The notes below the pieces were generated by a model, which did no database searches, had not been told where the DNA came from, and saw only the letters and a program-made list of their open reading frames with translations. 64,000 bases of DNA from Chitinophagales bacterium (lineage in GTDB: Bacteria > Bacteroidota > Bacteroidia > Chitinophagales > CAIOSU01): contig JANRLF010000006.1 in NCBI GenBank assembly GCA_033762815.1, forward strand, positions 71,631 to 135,630, written 5' to 3'. The stretch's first letter is position 1, and every line of letters starts with the position of its first letter. Both the position numbers and the translations under genes were made by a program. This document shows, piece after piece, positions 28,142 to 48,573 of the stretch.

Positions 28142-28239
28142 TTTTCCACAATTTAAAGCGAGCCTCAATAGTTTAATCGGCTGTTTTTGAGTCTTTTGTA
28201 TCAATTTATTATGCACACATGAGGTTTTAATGTGGATAA
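28142..28239. promoter_or_regulatory. Three DnaA-box-like 9-mers
   Basis: TTTTCCACA (28142), TTATGCACA (28209) and TGTGGATAA (28231) all fit TTWTNCACA. Confidence 0.4.
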
Positions 28240-28345
28240 TAGGATTTGCAATAGGGGGAGGCAAGGCATTATCTTCGTAATAGAATTTGAGTACATTGAA
28301 TCACAGTTAGGAATATTTTTTGTTAAATTTTACTATCTTGGTGCC

Positions 28346-29398
28346 ATGATTTCAAATCCAAAAATGATTACTCTAGGTCGTGAGTCTAGAGGATTAACCC
28401 AAAAGGAATTGGCTAATCTCCTAAATATAACCCAAGGTAGTATGTCGAAACTTGAGCAAGGTGTGCTTCATGCAAATGAGGATATGCTTTCGCTTTTAGG
28501 TAGGGAACTGAAATATCCCCCGTCATTTTTCACGCAAAAAGGAGATATTCTTCCAGAGAATTTTCTCTACAGAAAGAAAGTCAGCCTATCGGGCACTATG
28601 TTGAAGCGCCAATCATCTTACATGGCAATATGCCGGTTAATGGTACAGCGGATGATTAGCACTAGTTTTGTACCACTTAGAAGATTCCCTGTCATCCAGG
28701 TTACAGAGGAGGTTTCCCCCAGAGATATAGCAAATGCTGTGAGGGAGCAATTGGATATACCCAAGGGGCCGATACTTAACCTAATCGAAGTTGTTGAGAA
28801 GAGTGGCATAATTGTTATCGGGATTGATTTAGATACCGATAAAGTTGCAGGTAAAGGCATCATAACTGAAGGAATACCAATAATTTATTATAACATAAAC
28901 CTTCCTGCTGATAGACAACGTTTTACTATAGCACATGAGTTTGGTCATATTGTAATGCACTTAAACGTTTTCCCAGATGGTGATACTCAGGTAGAGATGG
29001 AAGCCAATAAGTTCGCCTCGGAATTTCTGATGCCTGCAGCACAAATACGTCAAGATCTTTCTGTACCGCTTAACTTAAGTTCATTAGGTGCCCTCAAAAA
29101 GAAATGGAAAGTTTCAATGTCCTCTTTGATTATTCGGGCTAAAGACTTAGGTATAATGAGTGACAGAGAATTTACTTTTTTTATGTCGCGATTTTCACAA
29201 TGGGGCTATAAAATGAGAGAACCTGCACAGTTCGATTTTTTGCCAGAGGAGACTTCCCTATATGAAGAAATGATTGAGAGATTCGCTAAATATAAAGGAG
29301 TCGAAATTATAGATGTTCCAAAGCTATTTTATTTGGATCAAAAGGAATTTTTTGAAAAATATGGAGGTAATTATAGGATGAAATATATGATAAATTAA
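28346..29398 (+). CDS. XRE-HTH plus ImmA/IrrE (peptidase M78) fusion regulator
   Basis: RESRGLTQKELA...SKLEQG HTH; RQRFTIAHEFGH (HExxH) and EMEANKFASEFLMP. Confidence 0.95.
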   Translation: MISNPKMITLGRESRGLTQKELANLLNITQGSMSKLEQGVLHANEDMLSLLGRELKYPPSFFTQKGDILPENFLYRKKVSLSGTMLKRQSSYMAICRLMVQRMISTSFVPLRRFPVIQVTEEVSPRDIANAVREQLDIPKGPILNLIEVVEKSGIIVIGIDLDTDKVAGKGIITEGIPIIYYNINLPADRQRFTIAHEFGHIVMHLNVFPDGDTQVEMEANKFASEFLMPAAQIRQDLSVPLNLSSLGALKKKWKVSMSSLIIRAKDLGIMSDREFTFFMSRFSQWGYKMREPAQFDFLPEETSLYEEMIERFAKYKGVEIIDVPKLFYLDQKEFFEKYGGNYRMKYMIN

Positions 29399-29687: not shown

Positions 29688-30035
29688 ATGTATAAATATC
29701 AAATATTTAAAGGTCAAAATGACCAGTACTACTTCCGTTTGAAAGCTGGTAACGGAGAAACCATCTTAAGTAGCGAAGGCTATACAACAAAGCAATCCTG
29801 CGAAGCTGGTATTGCCTCTGTGAGAGTGCACTCGCCTTTTGATGAAAACTATGTTAGGCTTACTTCATCTAACAGTCAGTACTATTTTAATCTCAGGGCA
29901 AAAAACTGGGAAGTTATAGGTAAAAGCGAAACCTATACCACCTCATATGCGCGAGATAATGGTATTGATGCCGTTAAGCGAGAGGGGCCCTTCGCTCCTG
30001 TAGAGGACTTAACTCTTTCAAACAGTTATTATTGA
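29688..30035 (+). CDS. YegP/DUF1508 family protein
   Basis: Two copies of YFRLKAGNGETI..SEGY...GI.SV. Confidence 0.93.
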   Translation: MYKYQIFKGQNDQYYFRLKAGNGETILSSEGYTTKQSCEAGIASVRVHSPFDENYVRLTSSNSQYYFNLRAKNWEVIGKSETYTTSYARDNGIDAVKREGPFAPVEDLTLSNSYY

Positions 30036-30626: not shown

Positions 30627-31472
30627 ATGGATGGAAAAATCAACGCCTTTATTCTGATAGCTTTTGCCGTTGCTATGGCTATATACGGCATGGGTGAGGC
30701 GTATCATTCATTTAGGCTGTTTTATGTAGGCAAAATGGTGGAATTGGAAGTAGAAAGTTGCCGCGAGATGCCTGGGGGTCGTTATTCTAATCCCTATACT
30801 TTAATTAAAGCGAAAGGTTTTGATGAAAGTATCAAATTAGTGGAGTTTGAGTGCTATTCTATAGGGAAGTGTTTAATGTTTAAGTACGTGCCTGGTATGG
30901 GTATACGACGGGTTTATAGCAAATCGCTGGCGAGGCAGATTTACACAGAAATTAAAGCCAACCTTAGCATGGCGGTTATGAGCCTTCCCTTTGTTATGTA
31001 TGGCTTTATACAATTTGTAAAACGGGGAAGGCAAAAGTTCATGGTAGTGTATCGCAGGGCGCGTGCAAGCTACAGCATTAGAAGCAACATTGGTGTGTAT
31101 CAGCTTATAAACCGCAATTTATTTATAACTTATCAACTGCTGCCAAGTATAATGATTGTGTACATAAATTGGATATTACTGCTAAAAGTTGGGCAGGGCT
31201 TGTTGTTGGTTGAAGGCGTAAATTCGTTTCTTTGTGGGTGCCTAATGGCCTTATACCTGTGTTACCTGTTTCTGCTTTCTCCTTATTTAATTGAGTGGCT
31301 TTATGAGTTAAAATTTGGCAACAATGAATATGTTGTTTTATTACGTACAGGTGTACAAATAGTATTGCTGTTATACTTTATGGTCACCCTTACTCGGTCA
31401 TTATTGCTTGATGGGGTTACATTTAAGCTTACCACGGATAATTTTTTAGAGTTTTTAGGTGTACATATGTAG
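30627..31472 (+). CDS. Hypothetical membrane protein
   Basis: 281-aa ORF with several TM helices. Confidence 0.65.
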   Translation: MDGKINAFILIAFAVAMAIYGMGEAYHSFRLFYVGKMVELEVESCREMPGGRYSNPYTLIKAKGFDESIKLVEFECYSIGKCLMFKYVPGMGIRRVYSKSLARQIYTEIKANLSMAVMSLPFVMYGFIQFVKRGRQKFMVVYRRARASYSIRSNIGVYQLINRNLFITYQLLPSIMIVYINWILLLKVGQGLLLVEGVNSFLCGCLMALYLCYLFLLSPYLIEWLYELKFGNNEYVVLLRTGVQIVLLLYFMVTLTRSLLLDGVTFKLTTDNFLEFLGVHM

Positions 31473-31686
31473 CCTACCCACTGTTGTGCCTAGCTTTCAG
31501 CTAAGTACAACTAGTATGGTAGCTTACAGCTACCTTCCGTAAGGAACCCCGCCGAATGATATTTACCCCCACCCAACCATCACCACATCGCCCCAAAAAA
31601 AACCACCCACCGAACACCTACCCACTGCATGCTGGCCGGGGCACATTTCAGGTCGCTAGCTACCCTAGCCTGCCACTGAGCATATA

Positions 31687-31812
31687 CCCATTTACCCATT
31701 TTTTGATTTGGATTATTCGCACTAAGTGCTTACCATTGATAATGTGCTGATGTGCTAATGTGCTGGTGTGCTGGTGTGCTGATTGATTTGAAAATTTGGT
31801 GATTTGGAAATT
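31687..31812. repeat. Repeat block A (8-bp TGTGCTGR/ATTTG microrepeats); inverted copy at 48253-48365
   Basis: CCCATTTACCCATTTTTTGATTTGG...GCACTAAGTGCTTACCATT is the reverse complement of 48315-48364. Confidence 0.9.
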
Positions 31813-31865
31813 TTTAGTCCCTCTCCCCGGCGTGTGTCTGTGGGAAGGCAGGGAGAGGAACTGAG

Positions 31866-32037
31866 GAAAAAACAAAAAAACACACTCATTTTAACAGAAA
31901 TTACTGACAATCAATAAACTAATGCAAACTGAAGTACTACTGAAGTACCACTGAAGTATCACCGAAATACTACTGAAACTATACTGAAGTACTACTGAAA
32001 CATCACTGAAGTACTACCGAAATACTACCGAAACAGC
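31866..32037 (+). repeat. Module 1: A-tract leader, 9 x 11-bp units (GAAGTACTACT-like) and GAAACAGC
   Basis: Units start at 31931, 31942 ... 32019. Confidence 0.95.
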
Positions 32038-32160
32038 TTTTTTGATGCTTCAATGAATTTGGAAATTTGGTGATTTGAAAATTTGAAAATGGCAAAGTGC
32101 AATTGTAAATCTGAAATCGTAAATCGTAAATCCCTCTACTTTCTACCCTCTACGAAAAGA

Positions 32161-32329
32161 GAAAAAACAAAAAAACACACTTTTTACACAACACATTGAT
32201 AAACACCCAATTAATAAGATTTGAACTACCTGCGAGATACCCTTGAACACCCCTTGAAGCACCTGCGAGATACCCTTGAAGTACCCGCGAACACCCCTTG
32301 AACTACCTGCGAAATACCTGCGAAACGGC
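32161..32329 (+). repeat. Module 2: A-tract leader, 9 x 11-bp units (GAACTACCTGC/GAACACCCCTT-like) and GAAACGGC
   Basis: Units start at 32223, 32234 ... 32311. Confidence 0.95.
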
Positions 32330-32555
32330 TTTTTTAAGCAAAATCCAGTTTCGGGCATGGGGAACAATCTCCCGTAGCTGGGATGGCTATGGTAGTTAAT
32401 CCACAAGCTTCCATGATGTTGGTTAAGATACGTTTTTAGGGATTGTATAAAATAGCTGAACCGCAGGAGATTAATTATTTATTTAAACCGTAACTACTTG
32501 ATGGCATTAATATTGATTGAGTATTTGCCTAATTCTAACCCAAAAACAACCAATT

Positions 32556-32762
32556 ATGGCTGACAGGAATCAAAATACCGGCGGACAAGGTAATCAAGGC
32601 AATACCGGCCGTCAAGGACAACAAGGCCAAGGTGGCCAACAAGGACAAGGTGGTCAACAAGGCCAAAAAGGCAACCAACCCGGCCAAAGGGAACGTGAAA
32701 TGGACCAAGATTTGGACCAAGACGCTGATACCAACACCGGTGGTGCTGGCCGTGCATTGTAA
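32556..32762 (+). CDS. Small Gln/Gly-rich low-complexity protein
   Basis: MADRNQNTGGQGNQG...GQQGQGGQQGQGGQQGQKG...DQDLDQDAD; A-rich start context. Confidence 0.7.
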   Translation: MADRNQNTGGQGNQGNTGRQGQQGQGGQQGQGGQQGQKGNQPGQREREMDQDLDQDADTNTGGAGRAL

Positions 32763-45693: not shown

Positions 45694-47460
45694 ATGGATA
45701 AGTTTGTGGTATCGGCAAGGAAATACCGCCCTGCCCGGTTCGATGAGGTGGTGGGGCAGGAAAGCGTGACCATCACGCTGAAGAATGCTATCAAGAGCGG
45801 TGCGCTGGCCCATTCCTTTCTCTTCTGCGGGCCCAGGGGCGTGGGCAAAACCACCTGTGCCCGTATTTTAGCCAAAACCATCAATTGCAATAACCCCCAG
45901 CCCGACTTTGAGGCCTGCAACCAATGCGATGCTTGCCTAAGCTTCAACAACAACAGCAGTTTCAATGTACACGAGTTGGATGCCGCCAGCAACAACTCCG
46001 TGGAGGATATCCGCAGCTTGGTTGACCAAGTACGCTTTGCCCCACAGGGTGCCAAGTACAAAGTGTATATCATTGACGAGGTGCACATGCTCAGCACCGC
46101 GGCGTTCAATGCCTTCCTGAAAACATTGGAAGAGCCCCCCTCCTATGCCGTTTTCATACTGGCTACCACCGAGAAGCACAAGATTATCCCCACCATCCTT
46201 TCGCGCTGCCAGATATTCGATTTCAACCGAATCACCATCGATGATATCGTAAGCCACCTGAAAGGTATTTGTGCCAAAGAGCATATTGCTGCCGAAGACG
46301 ATGCCCTGCACGTAATAGCCCAAAAGGCCGATGGTGCCCTGCGCGATGCGCTCAGTATGTTCGATAGGCTGGTGGACCACACCACCAATACCCTCACCTT
46401 TAGCAATGTCATCACTAGCCTCAACCTGCTCGATTATGACTATTTCTTTAAGGTAACGGACTATATCCTGAGCCAAGACCAAACCGGCCTGTTCCTGCTC
46501 TTTGACCAAGTGATACGCCACGGTTTTGAGGGCGATAACTTCTTGGGCGGCCTGATGGACCATTTCCGCAACCTGATGGTGAGCAAAGACCCTAAGACCA
46601 TCGGCATATTGGAGGTGAGCGGCGAACTGAAGCTGCGCTACCGCCAACAAGCCGAGCAAATACCCAACAGCCTGCTGCTCAATGCGCTGAACGTGGCCGC
46701 TCAGGCCGAGGTAGGCTACAAATCGAGCAAAAACCAACGCCTGCACGTGGAGCTGGCCCTGCTGAAAATGTGCTACCTGAGCAATGTGCTCAAGCTAAGC
46801 CCCGAGACTTTGGCGGCCGAAGTAAAAAAAAACTTTAGCCCCGACCACATAGCCACAGCCTCAACGGGAAAATCACCCTCAACCATAGCTGAACCGGTGG
46901 CTCCTATTGCCAGCCCCGAAAAAGCCCCCAGCCCCACACAGCCCACAGCGCCCGAAGAGAAAAAAATCATCAAACCCTTGGCTTCCAATACCGTCATGCC
47001 CAGCTTAACGGGTGGCAGCCTTGGCAGTTTATTGAGCGAGCCCGACAACCAACCCACCACCGTAGAAGAGCCCGCGGCCAGTGCCAGCACCGCCCAGCAA
47101 ATTGACCAAGCGGCATTTATGAAGGCCTGGAACGAGATTACTGACCAATTGACGCATGAGCGGCCTTCTGCGCATGTGCTCAAAGAAGCCAAAGTGATTT
47201 TTGAGGACGATACCGTTTTTTTGGCAATGCCATCTCTGTCCATCGAAATATTCAAACCGGTGCGCGATAGGGCGGTGGACTATATCTGTGGCCAGATGGG
47301 CCTTGCCCGCATCAATTTAGAGCTGCGCCAAGACAAAACTGCCATGGAAGACAAGCCCCGCAAAGCCTTTACCGCCCGGGAAAAGTTTGAGCAGATGAAG
47401 CTGAAAAACCCCGCCCTGGGCGACCTGCAAAACAAGCTCAACCTGAAACTGGACGATTGA
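45694..47460 (+). CDS. dnaX: DNA polymerase III subunit gamma/tau
   Basis: ARKYRP, GPRGVGKT, DEVHMLS and SRC motifs. Confidence 0.97.
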   Translation: MDKFVVSARKYRPARFDEVVGQESVTITLKNAIKSGALAHSFLFCGPRGVGKTTCARILAKTINCNNPQPDFEACNQCDACLSFNNNSSFNVHELDAASNNSVEDIRSLVDQVRFAPQGAKYKVYIIDEVHMLSTAAFNAFLKTLEEPPSYAVFILATTEKHKIIPTILSRCQIFDFNRITIDDIVSHLKGICAKEHIAAEDDALHVIAQKADGALRDALSMFDRLVDHTTNTLTFSNVITSLNLLDYDYFFKVTDYILSQDQTGLFLLFDQVIRHGFEGDNFLGGLMDHFRNLMVSKDPKTIGILEVSGELKLRYRQQAEQIPNSLLLNALNVAAQAEVGYKSSKNQRLHVELALLKMCYLSNVLKLSPETLAAEVKKNFSPDHIATASTGKSPSTIAEPVAPIASPEKAPSPTQPTAPEEKKIIKPLASNTVMPSLTGGSLGSLLSEPDNQPTTVEEPAASASTAQQIDQAAFMKAWNEITDQLTHERPSAHVLKEAKVIFEDDTVFLAMPSLSIEIFKPVRDRAVDYICGQMGLARINLELRQDKTAMEDKPRKAFTAREKFEQMKLKNPALGDLQNKLNLKLDD

Positions 47461-47920
47461 GCTCCAAGCTTTTCTGCATTTTAAAGTGCGGTATGCCCAC
47501 TTCCTCAAAACGCTCGCTCACAATATGCCAGGCCAAGCCAAGATAAAAGGGTACCGCCGTCTCGCGGGCATGGCACTCTATGATGGTGTAGCCCATGTCA
47601 TGGGCAAACCGTTCCGAGTACTGCACCATCCGCCGGCCAATGCCCGTGCCCTGACGGCTGCCGTCCACTGCCACCTGCCGCATTTTGATGCGCTGCCCGT
47701 CCAAAGGCGTAAGAATGAGGCAGCCCAGCACCTCGCCATTTTCCAGGTACACTAGGTGATGGTCGTTCACCTCCGCTGCCAGTTGCGCCTCCGTAAATTC
47801 CAAGCCCAGCGGCTTGCGCAATACCCTATAGCGCAGCTCCACCGCCCTGCGGTAACCCTGCGAATCGTGGGGCACCCACTGCATTACCCCCGGCAACAAG
47901 TTATCCATATTGGCCATCAT
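47438..47920 (-). CDS. GNAT acetyltransferase (ElaA-like)
   Basis: LRYRVLR, RQVAV...QGTGIG and HARE..V.FY motifs. Confidence 0.88.
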   Translation of the reverse strand: MMANMDNLLPGVMQWVPHDSQGYRRAVELRYRVLRKPLGLEFTEAQLAAEVNDHHLVYLENGEVLGCLILTPLDGQRIKMRQVAVDGSRQGTGIGRRMVQYSERFAHDMGYTIIECHARETAVPFYLGLAWHIVSERFEEVGIPHFKMQKSLELNRPVSG

Positions 47921-48003: not shown

Positions 48004-48200
48004 GCCGTTTCGCAGGTATTTCGCAGGTAGTTCAAGGGGTGTTCGCGGGTACTTCAAGGGTATCTCGCAGGTGCTTCAAGGGGTGTTCAAGGGTACTTCG
48101 CAGGTAGTTCAAATTCTATTAATTGGCTGTTTATCAATCATTTGTGTGAAAAAAGTGTTTTTTTTTGTTTTTTCTTCATTCGTAGAGGGTAGAATGTAGA
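48004..48200 (-). repeat. Module 3: inverted near-identical copy of module 2
   Basis: Nine 11-bp units at 48012-48110; eight are identical to module 2. Confidence 0.95.
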
Positions 48201-48252
48201 ACGATTTACGATGGAAGCCCGCCCCGCTTATTGCGGGGATTGCAGCCCAAAC

Positions 48253-48365
48253 CATTTTCAAATTTTCAAATCATCAAATTACCAAATCAATCAGCACATC
48301 AGCACATTACCATAATGGTAAGCACTTAGTGCGAATATTCCAAATCAAAAAATGGGTAAATGGGT
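48253..48365. repeat. Inverted copy of repeat block A
   Basis: Reverse complement of about 31687-31800. Confidence 0.88.
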
Positions 48366-48573
48366 GGGTGTTCAATGACGGGTTAGGCTAGCTAGAAACA
48401 CGAAAAGTGGAATCGCCAGTATGGCTTGGGTGGGTGTAGAGAGGTGTGGTTTTTGGGGGATGCTATTTACTTGGTGATGTGGAGGCTTGTTTTTAACTCT
48501 GTGCCGAAGTAAATGCCCATTTCCCATCACGGACCATTGGGTTAAATTTGTATAGATAATTGACAGCATTTAC

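Follow-up and report, generated by a model that had tools for sequence, protein, structure and literature searches.

Bacterial genomes commonly contain dispersed intergenic repeats, most of which are either palindromic and linked to a transposase or are freely slipping minisatellites. The REP and BIME elements of enterobacteria are built from palindromic units that are mobilised by RAYT (Y1) transposases, bind gyrase and IHF, and act in transcripts. The parC locus of plasmid R1 consists of ten direct 11-bp iterons that are bound by ParR and flank a promoter, and it occurs as a single site beside parMR. The RNA target of TRAP in the trp leader comprises 9-11 (G/U)AG triplets separated by spacers of 2-3 nt, and the spacing is variable for TRAP as well as for CsrA sites. 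The closest known kind of element to the one described here is BrickBuilt of Porphyromonas, which Klein et al. (2015; PMC4596501) describe as a minisatellite/MITE with 19 copies making up about 0.44% of the Porphyromonas gingivalis genome. In the same account, BrickBuilt is species-restricted and always intergenic, promoter elements are reported inside the element, and its 23-nt units occur 1 to 22.8 times per copy, with 0-6% indels and small inverted-repeat ends (PMC4596501).

In the window, by which we mean the whole 64,000-nucleotide stretch of DNA that was analysed, three modules were confirmed as the first-pass annotation had described them: each has an A-rich leader, a linker of 41-44 nt, nine 11-nt units beginning with GAA, and a GAAACRGC cap (Table 1). 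The module had been taken for the element itself and is real, but it proved to be only part of a larger repeated unit. Each window module is a piece of a mosaic cassette that begins at a highly conserved promoter-like box, and the two cassettes extend over 31585-32338 (+) and 48470-47990 (-). The order of parts is box, short tandem 7- or 8-mers, a G+C-rich hairpin, the A-rich leader, a linker of about 43 nt, the array, the GAAAC cap and often a T-run, and the pieces are shuffled between copies. The number of octamers differs between cassettes, and genome-wide the octamer motifs are mostly found near modules. An alternative hairpin, CCCCGCAATAAGCGGGG, stands at the same relative place in other cassettes; with both strands counted, a module lay no more than 500 nt away for 58 of the 72 occurrences of the first hairpin motif and for 20 of the 26 of the second. 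The occupation of the same relative place by two unrelated hairpin sequences looks like selection for the fold.

Table 1. Coordinates of the cassette parts in the window.
Feature	Position	Strand	Remarks
Cassette 1, conserved 5' part	31585..31738	+	repeat coverage profile rises from about 31585
Cassette 1, box TTG-N20-TACCATTG	31708-31738	+	end of the 5' part
Palindrome GCACTAAGTGC within the cassette 1 box	31719-31729	+	
Tandem octamers (ATGTGCTG)5 + (ATTTGGAA)3.5	31742..31813	+	Tandem Repeats Finder, upstream alignments
G+C-rich inverted repeat CCCTCTCCC...GGGAGAGG	31819..31858	+	read from the sequence and upstream alignments
Module 1, A-rich leader GAAAAAACAAAAAAACACACT	31866..31886	+	
Module 1, linker, 44 nt, CTGACAATCAA core	31887..31930	+	
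Module 1, array, nine 11-nt type A units (GAARYACYACY)	31931..32029	+	
Module 1, cap GAAACAGC	32030-32037	+	then T6 at 32038-32043
Inter-module spacer	32044..32160	+	octamers 32056-32090; heptamers AATCGTA and CCCTCTA 32101-32153
Module 2, leader	32161..32181	+	
Module 2, linker, 41 nt, TTGATAAACAC core	32182..32222	+	
Module 2, array, nine 11-nt type B units	32223..32321	+	
Module 2, cap GAAACGGC	32322-32329	+	then T6 at 32330-32335; repeat stops sharply at about 32338
Cassette 2, conserved 5' part	48313..48470	-	box TTG-N20-TACCATTA at 48343-48313
Cassette 2, hairpin CCCCGCAATAAGCGGGG	48222..48238	-	
Module 3, leader	48154..48174	-	
Module 3, linker, 43 nt	48111..48153	-	
Module 3, array, nine type B units	48012..48110	-	
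Module 3, cap GAAACGGC	48004..48011	-	then ATTTT

The modules were shown to belong to a composite intergenic repeat of about 75 copies that, among the genomes searched, occurs only in this one. In the host assembly (3.46 Mb, Bacteroidota-like, 13 contigs, 88.5% complete), the family amounted to 79 nhmmer matches, 74 of them full length, which merged into 61 loci (43 single and 18 double); by crude ORF calls, all 79 were intergenic. The earlier idea of a non-autonomous dispersed element was right as to dispersal. A regular expression of ten GA dinucleotides 11 nt apart matched 70 of the 79 members and nothing else in the whole 3.46 Mb genome, and a six-GA version likewise gave zero matches outside the family, which places the array pattern above chance. 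Members of young subfamilies were up to 96% identical. Along the contigs the loci were more evenly spaced than expected by chance (CV 0.64 vs 0.97 +/- 0.12, P ~0.0004), with 8% of gaps below 15 kb against 26% expected; this evenness could partly be an artefact of assembly, as short repeat-flanked contigs may be missing from the 13 contigs, and five of the loci lie at contig ends. No orientation bias was found relative to neighbouring genes and no strand bias either, with loci agreeing with the local gene strand in 30 of 61 cases and with GC skew in 26 of 61; the nearest downstream ORF was on the same strand for 43 of the 77 matches having such an ORF. The 117 flanking ORFs encode unrelated housekeeping functions with nothing in common, and the idea of a regulon was dropped on this ground. 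They include one integrase, one resolvase and one IS1595-type zinc-ribbon fragment; no partition genes were present among the 117, and no transposase or recombinase was regularly adjacent to the copies, so that the first-pass proposal of accessory sites for a recombinase found no support. The genome has a single reverse-transcriptase ORF, which is separated from one copy by about 1.5 kb and is on the opposite strand.

Counts of units in the 74 full-length copies (those of 13 deviant rows being read by hand) gave nine in 65, eight in 4, ten in 3, seven in 1 and eleven in 1. The 'exactly nine' of the first-pass annotation is thus a strong mode and not a rule, with a range of 7-11. The impression of nine in every copy also came in part from shared ancestry, because the sequences of individual units are conserved from copy to copy, and counts other than nine become more frequent with divergence: they were seen in 1 of 37 copies with more than 90% nearest-neighbour identity versus 4 of 14 copies below 80%. 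The other 10 of these 14 still had nine units. Phase was preserved throughout, as all 74 arrays formed a single unbroken 11-nt run, with no phase-breaking indels even in the most diverged copies. Leader, linker and cap accompanied the array in all 74, yet the length of leader plus linker varied, the modal value from leader to first unit occurring in only 18 copies. An unbroken phase beside a leader plus linker of variable length points to a constraint on geometry, as had been proposed at first reading. Indeed, the prevalence of nine units and the unbroken phase bear out the claim that this is not a freely slipping minisatellite, and a CRISPR array could be set aside, as had also been claimed, since the 11-nt units abut without spacers.

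Within the units, GAA was fixed and positions 4-5 were free, and the remaining fixed bases were specific to type, namely AC at positions 9-10 in type A and CC at 7-8 in type B. In type A units, A3 was present in 98% and A9 and C10 in 100% (G1 and A2 are 100% by construction). Type B units read GAAnnaCC followed by CTGC or CCTT in alternation, which creates a super-period of 22 nt. The only bases common to A and B arrays were Y-GAA. With nine units and a cap that itself starts with GAA, a typical copy carries ten GAA sites at 11 bp. The + strand of the whole module is poor in G (8% in leader plus linker; 10% G and 41% C in array positions 4-11), and conservation within copies was uneven, with box and GAA fixed and other sites free. 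A coding function for the type A array was rejected, as TGA or TAG every 11 nt shuts all frames on both strands, and an 87-aa ORF over module 2 on the - strand was taken as spurious.

The best conserved stretch of the cassette is the box (mean pairwise identity 0.92-0.96), which has the form TTG-N20-TACCATTG or a variant of it and was found upstream of 35 of the 74 modules, where the expectation per 420 nt was 0.04. The 5' part that it closes is present in 30 copies in the genome. In 29 of these a module follows 85-240 nt downstream on the same strand, and the remaining copy directly precedes a yicC-like ORF, in a promoter-like position. Five diverged solitary copies were 0.88-0.96 identical over the box and 0.76-0.93 over the module, falling to 0.3-0.5 in both flanks. 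The geometry of the box is that of the -33/-7 elements of Bacteroidetes sigma-A promoters (TTG, 20 nt, TAccATTG), for which the consensus TAnnTTTG at -12 to -5 is given (PMC9723704); it also scores as a sigma-70-type site, TTCGCA-16-GATAAT. Upstream of genes in this genome, canonical TAnnTTTG was enriched (257 sense vs 134 antisense), in contrast to the -7 variant of the box, TAnnATTG, which was not (88 sense vs 92 antisense), and a canonical sigma-A promoter was rejected for this reason.

Searches of other genomes returned neither the array pattern of the family nor its 5' part in any of 17 genomes of the same taxonomic family, and by BLAST in 40 relatives the octamer part of the spacer was the only piece that matched, in related genera. 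Exact-word scans, which detect near-identical copies only, found a 20-nt leader word in 107 stretches of metagenome contigs, with a phased array in 0 of 80 loci fetched, and a 22-nt type B word once in genome contigs, a chance match in a genome without arrays. The GA-phased pattern matched in 20 of 400 genomes of the order and 14 of 300 of the class, mostly as plain minisatellites. Four Bacteroidia genomes (G373, G516, G137 and G435), however, contained heterogeneous GAA-phased 11-bp arrays of 8-11 sites, which are themselves undescribed. Like the family, these arrays keep the 11-bp phase and Y-GAA while the rest varies (all-pairs unit identity 0.50-0.72), although a shared GA is partly built into a search by that pattern. 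They also have short 7-8-mer tandem repeats nearby, and those of G516 and G373 are likewise intergenic and multi-copy. Unlike the family, they mostly form head-to-head pairs around a short centre, lack the A-rich leader and the GAAAC cap, and have no detectable sequence homology to it; the G516 arrays are purine-rich, whereas those of the family are C-rich.

We tentatively favour, at a probability of roughly 0.38, the reading that the array of this composite repeat acts as an iteron platform in helical phase, with double-stranded DNA as the form that is read. Spaced exactly 11 bp apart, or about one helical turn, the ten GAA sites would offer the same contacts on nearly one face over about 110 bp. 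A putative DNA-binding protein that oligomerises, or a pair of related proteins serving type A and type B separately, could coat or wrap the array; the conserved box may then be a nucleation site or the promoter of the same cassette. The best geometric match to the array is R1 parC, which likewise has about ten direct 11-bp sites, one per helical turn, but differs in that the family occupies 61 chromosomal loci, has no adjacent partition genes and is unrelated in sequence. The conservation pattern, with GAA fixed and positions 4-5 free, is iteron-like, and the head-to-head arrangement seen in G373 and G516 suits a double-stranded reader. The unbroken phase, the prevalence of nine units, also among copies with only distant relatives, the even spacing of the loci and the lack of enrichment of the -7 variant, by which the box is no standard promoter, count for this reading too. 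A double-stranded DNA platform is also favoured by the lack of any sign of RNA structure or of an RNA reader of a known kind. Across the whole window, Rfam 15 gave no match at the gathering threshold, and at E up to 10 the region 31450-32450 gave only chance-level matches (E 0.9 or more). The MFE of the array was the same as that of dinucleotide shuffles (z = -0.33), the fold of a putative 304-nt transcript scored z = -1.0, and RNAalifold on leader plus linker of 74 copies found no consensus pairs. A linker hairpin, ATTGA..TCAAT, for which covariation had been read by eye in a few copies, was dropped, being absent or mismatched in most type B and many type A copies. On the other side, A and B arrays with only Y-GAA in common leave little specificity for one DNA reader, and the strict phase could also reflect an origin of the units by tandem duplication plus limited age.

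The G-poor + strand and its constant polarity to the box (29 of 30) are no less compatible with a transcript than with a DNA site, and it is possible, though somewhat unlikely, that the platform is RNA. The box would then be a promoter that drives, from each cassette, a non-coding RNA rich in A, poor in G and without structure, whose ten evenly spaced YGAAR sites would form a multivalent landing pad for a putative oligomeric RNA-binding protein and act as a sponge or scaffold, in principle like TRAP-bound repeats or the CsrB/CrcZ sponges. As in those RNAs, many short purine motifs lie in an otherwise unstructured sequence; unlike the TRAP target, the motif is GAA and the 8-nt spacers are invariant. 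Such an RNA agrees with a unit of conservation that spans exactly box to cap, with the -33/-7 sigma-A geometry of the box and its sigma-70-type score, with the same-strand module downstream of all 5' parts except the one before the yicC-like ORF, and with a + strand predicted to be unstructured. It agrees as well with the T-run seen after the cap in 43 of the 74, with the interchangeable hairpins upstream of the leader, and with four copies that have GGGTA-type units, whose predicted pairing to B-type arrays reaches -21.8 kcal/mol against -10.1 for a shuffled partner. The -7 variant of the box, however, is not enriched upstream of genes, and no stable hairpin precedes the T-run (mean MFE -2.0 kcal/mol), so that there is no intrinsic terminator at the cap. 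The 88.5%-complete assembly yielded no gene for Hfq, RRM_1, TRAP (PF02081, 0 matches) or CsrA. An 11-nt spacing that is invariant in 74 of 74 arrays exceeds the usual needs of targets in flexible single-stranded RNA, an sRNA gene family with 61 loci would be unusually large, and the head-to-head GAA arrays elsewhere leave no space for two divergent promoters.

An unlikely alternative is a selfish mosaic repeat of the BrickBuilt or MITE kind, that is, non-autonomous DNA whose spread through this lineage is recent, with box and array needed by a mobilising enzyme or a recombination process and any host effects, such as stray promoters, being incidental. High copy number, the near-identity of the young subfamilies, absence from 17 of 17 genomes of the same taxonomic family, copies at five contig ends, unrelated housekeeping genes alongside, the absence of orientation bias (neighbours, local gene strand, GC skew) and the shuffling of mosaic pieces are all as such a repeat would have them. 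So is the match of leader, tandem units and tail to the published description of BrickBuilt (PMC4596501). Both are multi-copy, intergenic and confined to one lineage of Bacteroidota, with spacerless tandem units that have conserved and variable positions and are framed by leader and tail; they differ in that the family has 11-nt units in numbers of 7-11 with a mode of nine, no phase-breaking indels, and ends that consist only of an A-run and a T-run without inverted termini (nine two-ended cassettes), and the two have no sequence similarity. Like REP and BIME, the repeat is dispersed, intergenic and assembled as a mosaic from a small set of short motif types, G+C-rich palindromes among them, but its core is a direct-repeat array in place of a palindrome. 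Neither terminal inverted repeats nor target-site duplications were seen at the nine cassettes examined, and there was no IS sharing their ends, which sets the family apart from MITEs. A Y1/RAYT transposase was absent from the 88.5%-complete assembly (PF01797, 0 matches), and none of the transposase-type genes is a regular neighbour. Over-dispersed spacing is not expected under random insertion, and the uneven conservation within copies and the absence of phase-breaking indels even at the greatest divergence together suggest selection on resident copies.

Returning to the double-stranded platform, a more ambitious version of it appears improbable: the roughly 60 cassettes would be evenly spaced, chromosome-wide parC-like platforms, each bound at its ten GAA sites by a putative oligomerising protein, that serve as nucleoid-organising domain boundaries or as handles for segregation or topology. 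Type A and B arrays would be two flavours, usually paired as A then B, and one conserved putative reader would recognise these as well as the GAA-phased arrays of other Bacteroidia. If true, this would be an undescribed DNA-organising system in the class. Very improbable, finally, is a cis-acting 5' untranslated leader, an attenuator or Rho-loading site for the downstream gene: modules 2 and 3 do each precede an ORF on their own strand (32517-32762, + and 47438-47920, -) and the unstructured, C-rich and G-poor array resembles Rho-utilisation sites, but only 43 of 77 downstream ORFs are on the same strand, they have no function in common, alternative hairpins of the attenuator kind are lacking, and the UC or CC dimer that is the primary-site ligand of Rho is missing from type A units (GAAGUACUACU), so that a Rho-loading site would suit type B and not type A.

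Together, these features set the family apart from most dispersed repeats of bacteria: a direct-repeat array without any break of helical phase, a near-fixed number of units across subfamilies that differ in unit sequence, and the linkage of this array to a box of very high conservation. Along the contigs, the spread of the family also appears unusually even. Were it selfish DNA, it would be a new type without the usual hallmarks of transposons. If instead the array is a protein platform, whether as DNA or as RNA, the roughly 60 natural binding sites in this genome could serve as bait for the reader in a little-studied lineage of Bacteroidota, and such a reader would be of wider interest on account of the similar GAA-phased arrays elsewhere in the Bacteroidia.

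The first-pass annotation had described three modules in the window, and re-reading the sequence bore out their positions and anatomy. All three carry an A-rich leader of 21 nt and a linker whose core resembles TGAYAAWCA, followed by nine 11-mers that abut and start GA(A/G) and by a GAAAC(A/G)GC cap, and Tandem Repeats Finder (TRF) reported period 11 (also 22, 44 or 55) at all three. Repeat coverage ended sharply on the 3' side, right after the cap and its T-run.

Coordinates of features (window positions, unless an own-genome contig, C4 to C8, is named)
Feature	Position	Strand	Details
Module 1	31866-32043	+	linker 44 nt, T6 after cap
Module 2	32161-32335	+	linker 41 nt, T6 after cap
Module 3	48174-48004	-	linker 43 nt, ATTTT after cap
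Repeated stretch 1	31585-32338		from repeat coverage
Repeated stretch 2	48470-47990		from repeat coverage
Octamer repeat GATTTGAAAATTTGAAAATG	32056-32092
388-aa ORF	28232-29398	+
115-aa ORF	29688-30035	+	follows 388-aa ORF
Small ORF	32517-32762	+	downstream of module 2; TRF rows 32574-32666
5' part lacking a module	C6:33970-34072	-	outside the window
Modules with GGGTA(C/T) unit cores	C4:506280, C7:214306, C8:450754, C8:476795		GAA frame kept
Reverse-transcriptase ORF	C8:693949-694659	-	loci L245/L253; 538-aa open frame, RVT_1

Among other window ORFs, translations read as a putative XRE-type helix-turn-helix fused to an ImmA/IrrE-like peptidase (388 aa) and as two putative YegP-like repeats (115 aa). 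Tandem repeats of 18 and 27 nt underlie the small ORF, whose predicted peptide is rich in Gly, Gln and Asn.

A two-round nhmmer search of the organism's own assembly (3.46 Mb, 13 contigs, 88.5% complete), in which the window is C6:71631-135630, returned 79 matches, of which 74 are full length. By crude ORF calls all 79 are intergenic; merging gives 61 loci, of which 43 are single and 18 double. Ten GAs at 11-nt spacing occurred in 70 of the 79 matches and nowhere else in the genome, and even six GAs so phased had no occurrence outside family matches; the pattern is far from chance. Two array types predominate, type A (units GAARYACYACY) and type B (units GAAnnaCC, then CTGC or CCTT), 40 and 34 copies respectively under a looser classification, and double loci carry A then B in 14 of 16 typeable cases. 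The GAA of the units is fixed and positions 4-5 vary freely, with further fixed bases specific to each type. In four modules the unit core is GGGTA(C/T), whose reverse complement is the ATACCC core of type B.

Ten phased GAs, equivalent to nine units plus the cap, were present in 61 of the 74 full-length copies, and manual inspection of the 13 deviant rows brought the nine-unit copies to 65, leaving 4 copies of eight units, 3 of ten, and 1 each of seven and eleven. The earlier claim of exactly nine units thus stands as the mode and fails as a rule, the remaining copies having 7-11. Departure from nine rose with divergence between copies (1/37 at nearest-neighbor identity >90%, 4/23 at 80-90% and 4/14 below 80%), so the constancy is in part inheritance; unit-specific sequences common to different copies indicate that whole modules were duplicated. 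Free variation in unit number, proposed at the outset as the mark of an ordinary minisatellite, was not seen: numbers stayed within nine +/- 2, and in all 74 copies, across both main unit types, the units abut and no indel breaks the 11-nt phase. This upholds the first reading that differing units keep one period and that the arrays are neither CRISPR nor slipping minisatellites. The adjoining leader and linker (~64 nt) had their modal length in merely 18 of 74 copies, homopolymer slippage being some of that variation.

Upstream of the leader lie a conserved 5' part (~150 nt), variable octamers (ATGTGCTG and ATTTGRAA), a G+C-rich hairpin of either of two unrelated sequences, and the heptamers GTAAATC and CTACCCT. 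The 5' part terminates in a TTG-N20-TACCATT(G/A) box; 35 of 74 modules have this box upstream, where 0.04 per 420 nt would be expected, and 29 of 30 copies of the 5' part had a same-strand module 85-240 nt downstream. In a diverged solitary subfamily (n=5), conservation begins at a variant box, CTTGC...TAAATACCGTTCATTG (identity 0.88-0.96), continues through the module (0.76-0.93) and ends at the cap, with 0.3-0.5 in both flanks; the conserved unit therefore runs from box to cap. The box has promoter geometry, including a -33/-7 reading. Its -7 variant, TAnnATTG, showed no enrichment upstream of own-genome genes; TAnnTTTG, the Bacteroidetes sigma-A -7 box according to PMC9723704, was enriched there in the sense direction, at 10-40 nt before start codons. 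The one remaining 5' part, with box, octamers, hairpin and heptamers, lacks a module and stands immediately before a yicC-like ORF, as though supplying that ORF's promoter region.

Several identities were rejected. The modules had no Rfam match, fold tests gave no structure, no terminator was found at the cap, and a coding reading failed. Classical MITE or REP elements were set aside since inverted termini and target duplications were not seen at the 9 cassettes examined and no Y1 transposase was found in the 88.5%-complete assembly. The 117 flanking ORFs are functionally unrelated housekeeping genes (e.g., dnaE, relA/spoT, grpE, efp, ftsZ, gap, glyA) with a few defence or mobile genes, which rejects a regulon marker, and copies showed no orientation bias in the genome. 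PF18962 (type IX secretion sorting domain) had 121 matches in this genome; these and the TAnnTTTG enrichment make the organism look like one of the Bacteroidota. A single reverse-transcriptase ORF is present in the assembly, ~1.5 kb away from a cassette and on the other strand.

Within contigs, the 48 gaps from one locus to the next had a CV of 0.64, versus 0.97 in all three nulls, each keeping locus number per contig: loci placed uniformly (0.97 +/- 0.12, P about 0.0004), the same with loci at contig ends kept in place (P about 0.0002), and loci placed at random among long intergenic regions (0/2000 as low). Gaps <15 kb made up 8%, versus 26% expected (P about 0.001). The 61 loci are more even than random, though absent short repeat-bounded contigs may have removed short gaps.

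When the window modules were compared with 40 relatives by BLAST, the octamer spacer was the sole matching piece, and it adjoined start codons. In other genera of the family the octamer repeat matched as many as 18 times in a genome; at inspected loci (L033-L042) a start codon lay within 10-50 nt of it, usually in the form CATTTTCAAATTTTCAAAT...ATG, and in one reversed case its own ATG was the start codon. None of 17 genomes from the organism's family had the GA-phase pattern or the 5' part, and searching metagenome and species-representative collections for exact words, a method blind to diverged relatives, gave chance matches only. Of 400 genomes in the order, 20 others matched the GA-phase pattern, as did 14 of 300 in the class; most of these are ordinary minisatellites. 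Heterogeneous arrays with 8-11 GAA sites at 11 bp occurred in a few genomes (G373, G516, G137, G435, G596 and G147), being multi-copy and in head-to-head pairs around a 7-30 bp center in G373 and G516. Those at L054/L275 (G373), L264 and L268-L273 (G516), L051 (G137) and L266/L274 (G435) are intergenic with units sharing (C)CGAA, and arrays in these four genomes adjoin short 7-8-mer tandem repeats. Such arrays of other Bacteroidia appear undescribed so far; the search itself used a GA pattern, which accounts in part for the GA they share, and their likeness to the present family is one of pattern, any homology being putative.

The array is resident, constrained, phase-locked and joined to a conserved box. 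We favor, at a probability of about 0.38, double-stranded DNA as the molecule read, in which case a putative duplex-binding reader would recognize the array. This is because the one-turn spacing is invariant, which duplex readers require and flexible RNA targets rarely keep; because the conserved/free/conserved pattern of positions is iteron-like; because no RNA fold, terminator or, in the 88.5%-complete assembly, known RNA-binding partner was found; because head-to-head arrays elsewhere suit such a reader; and because the loci are evenly spread. Plasmid R1 parC has a similar geometry in a different genetic context. That the array instead acts within a transcript from the cassette, as a platform RNA, is somewhat less probable, and is supported by the box-to-cap conservation, polarity fixed relative to the box, G-poor + strand, interchangeable hairpins, T-run after the cap, the yicC case, and the predicted pairing of GGGTA-type with type-B arrays (-21.8 kcal/mol, versus -10.1 with shuffled partners). 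A purely selfish element is less probable still: it accounts for copy number and lineage restriction but leaves the uneven conservation and missing transposon marks unexplained. A cis-acting leader fits poorly and is very improbable.

BrickBuilt of Porphyromonas gingivalis is the closest described kind, sharing leader, abutting tandem units and tail, and being likewise intergenic, multi-copy, species-restricted and equipped with promoter elements; unlike the present family, it has variable unit number and inverted ends (PMC4596501). The 11-bp phase lock of the cassettes is a further difference from BrickBuilt. We rate the family as dispersed mosaic intergenic repeats, already known as a class, and give a minority probability to its marking a DNA-organizing system not yet described.
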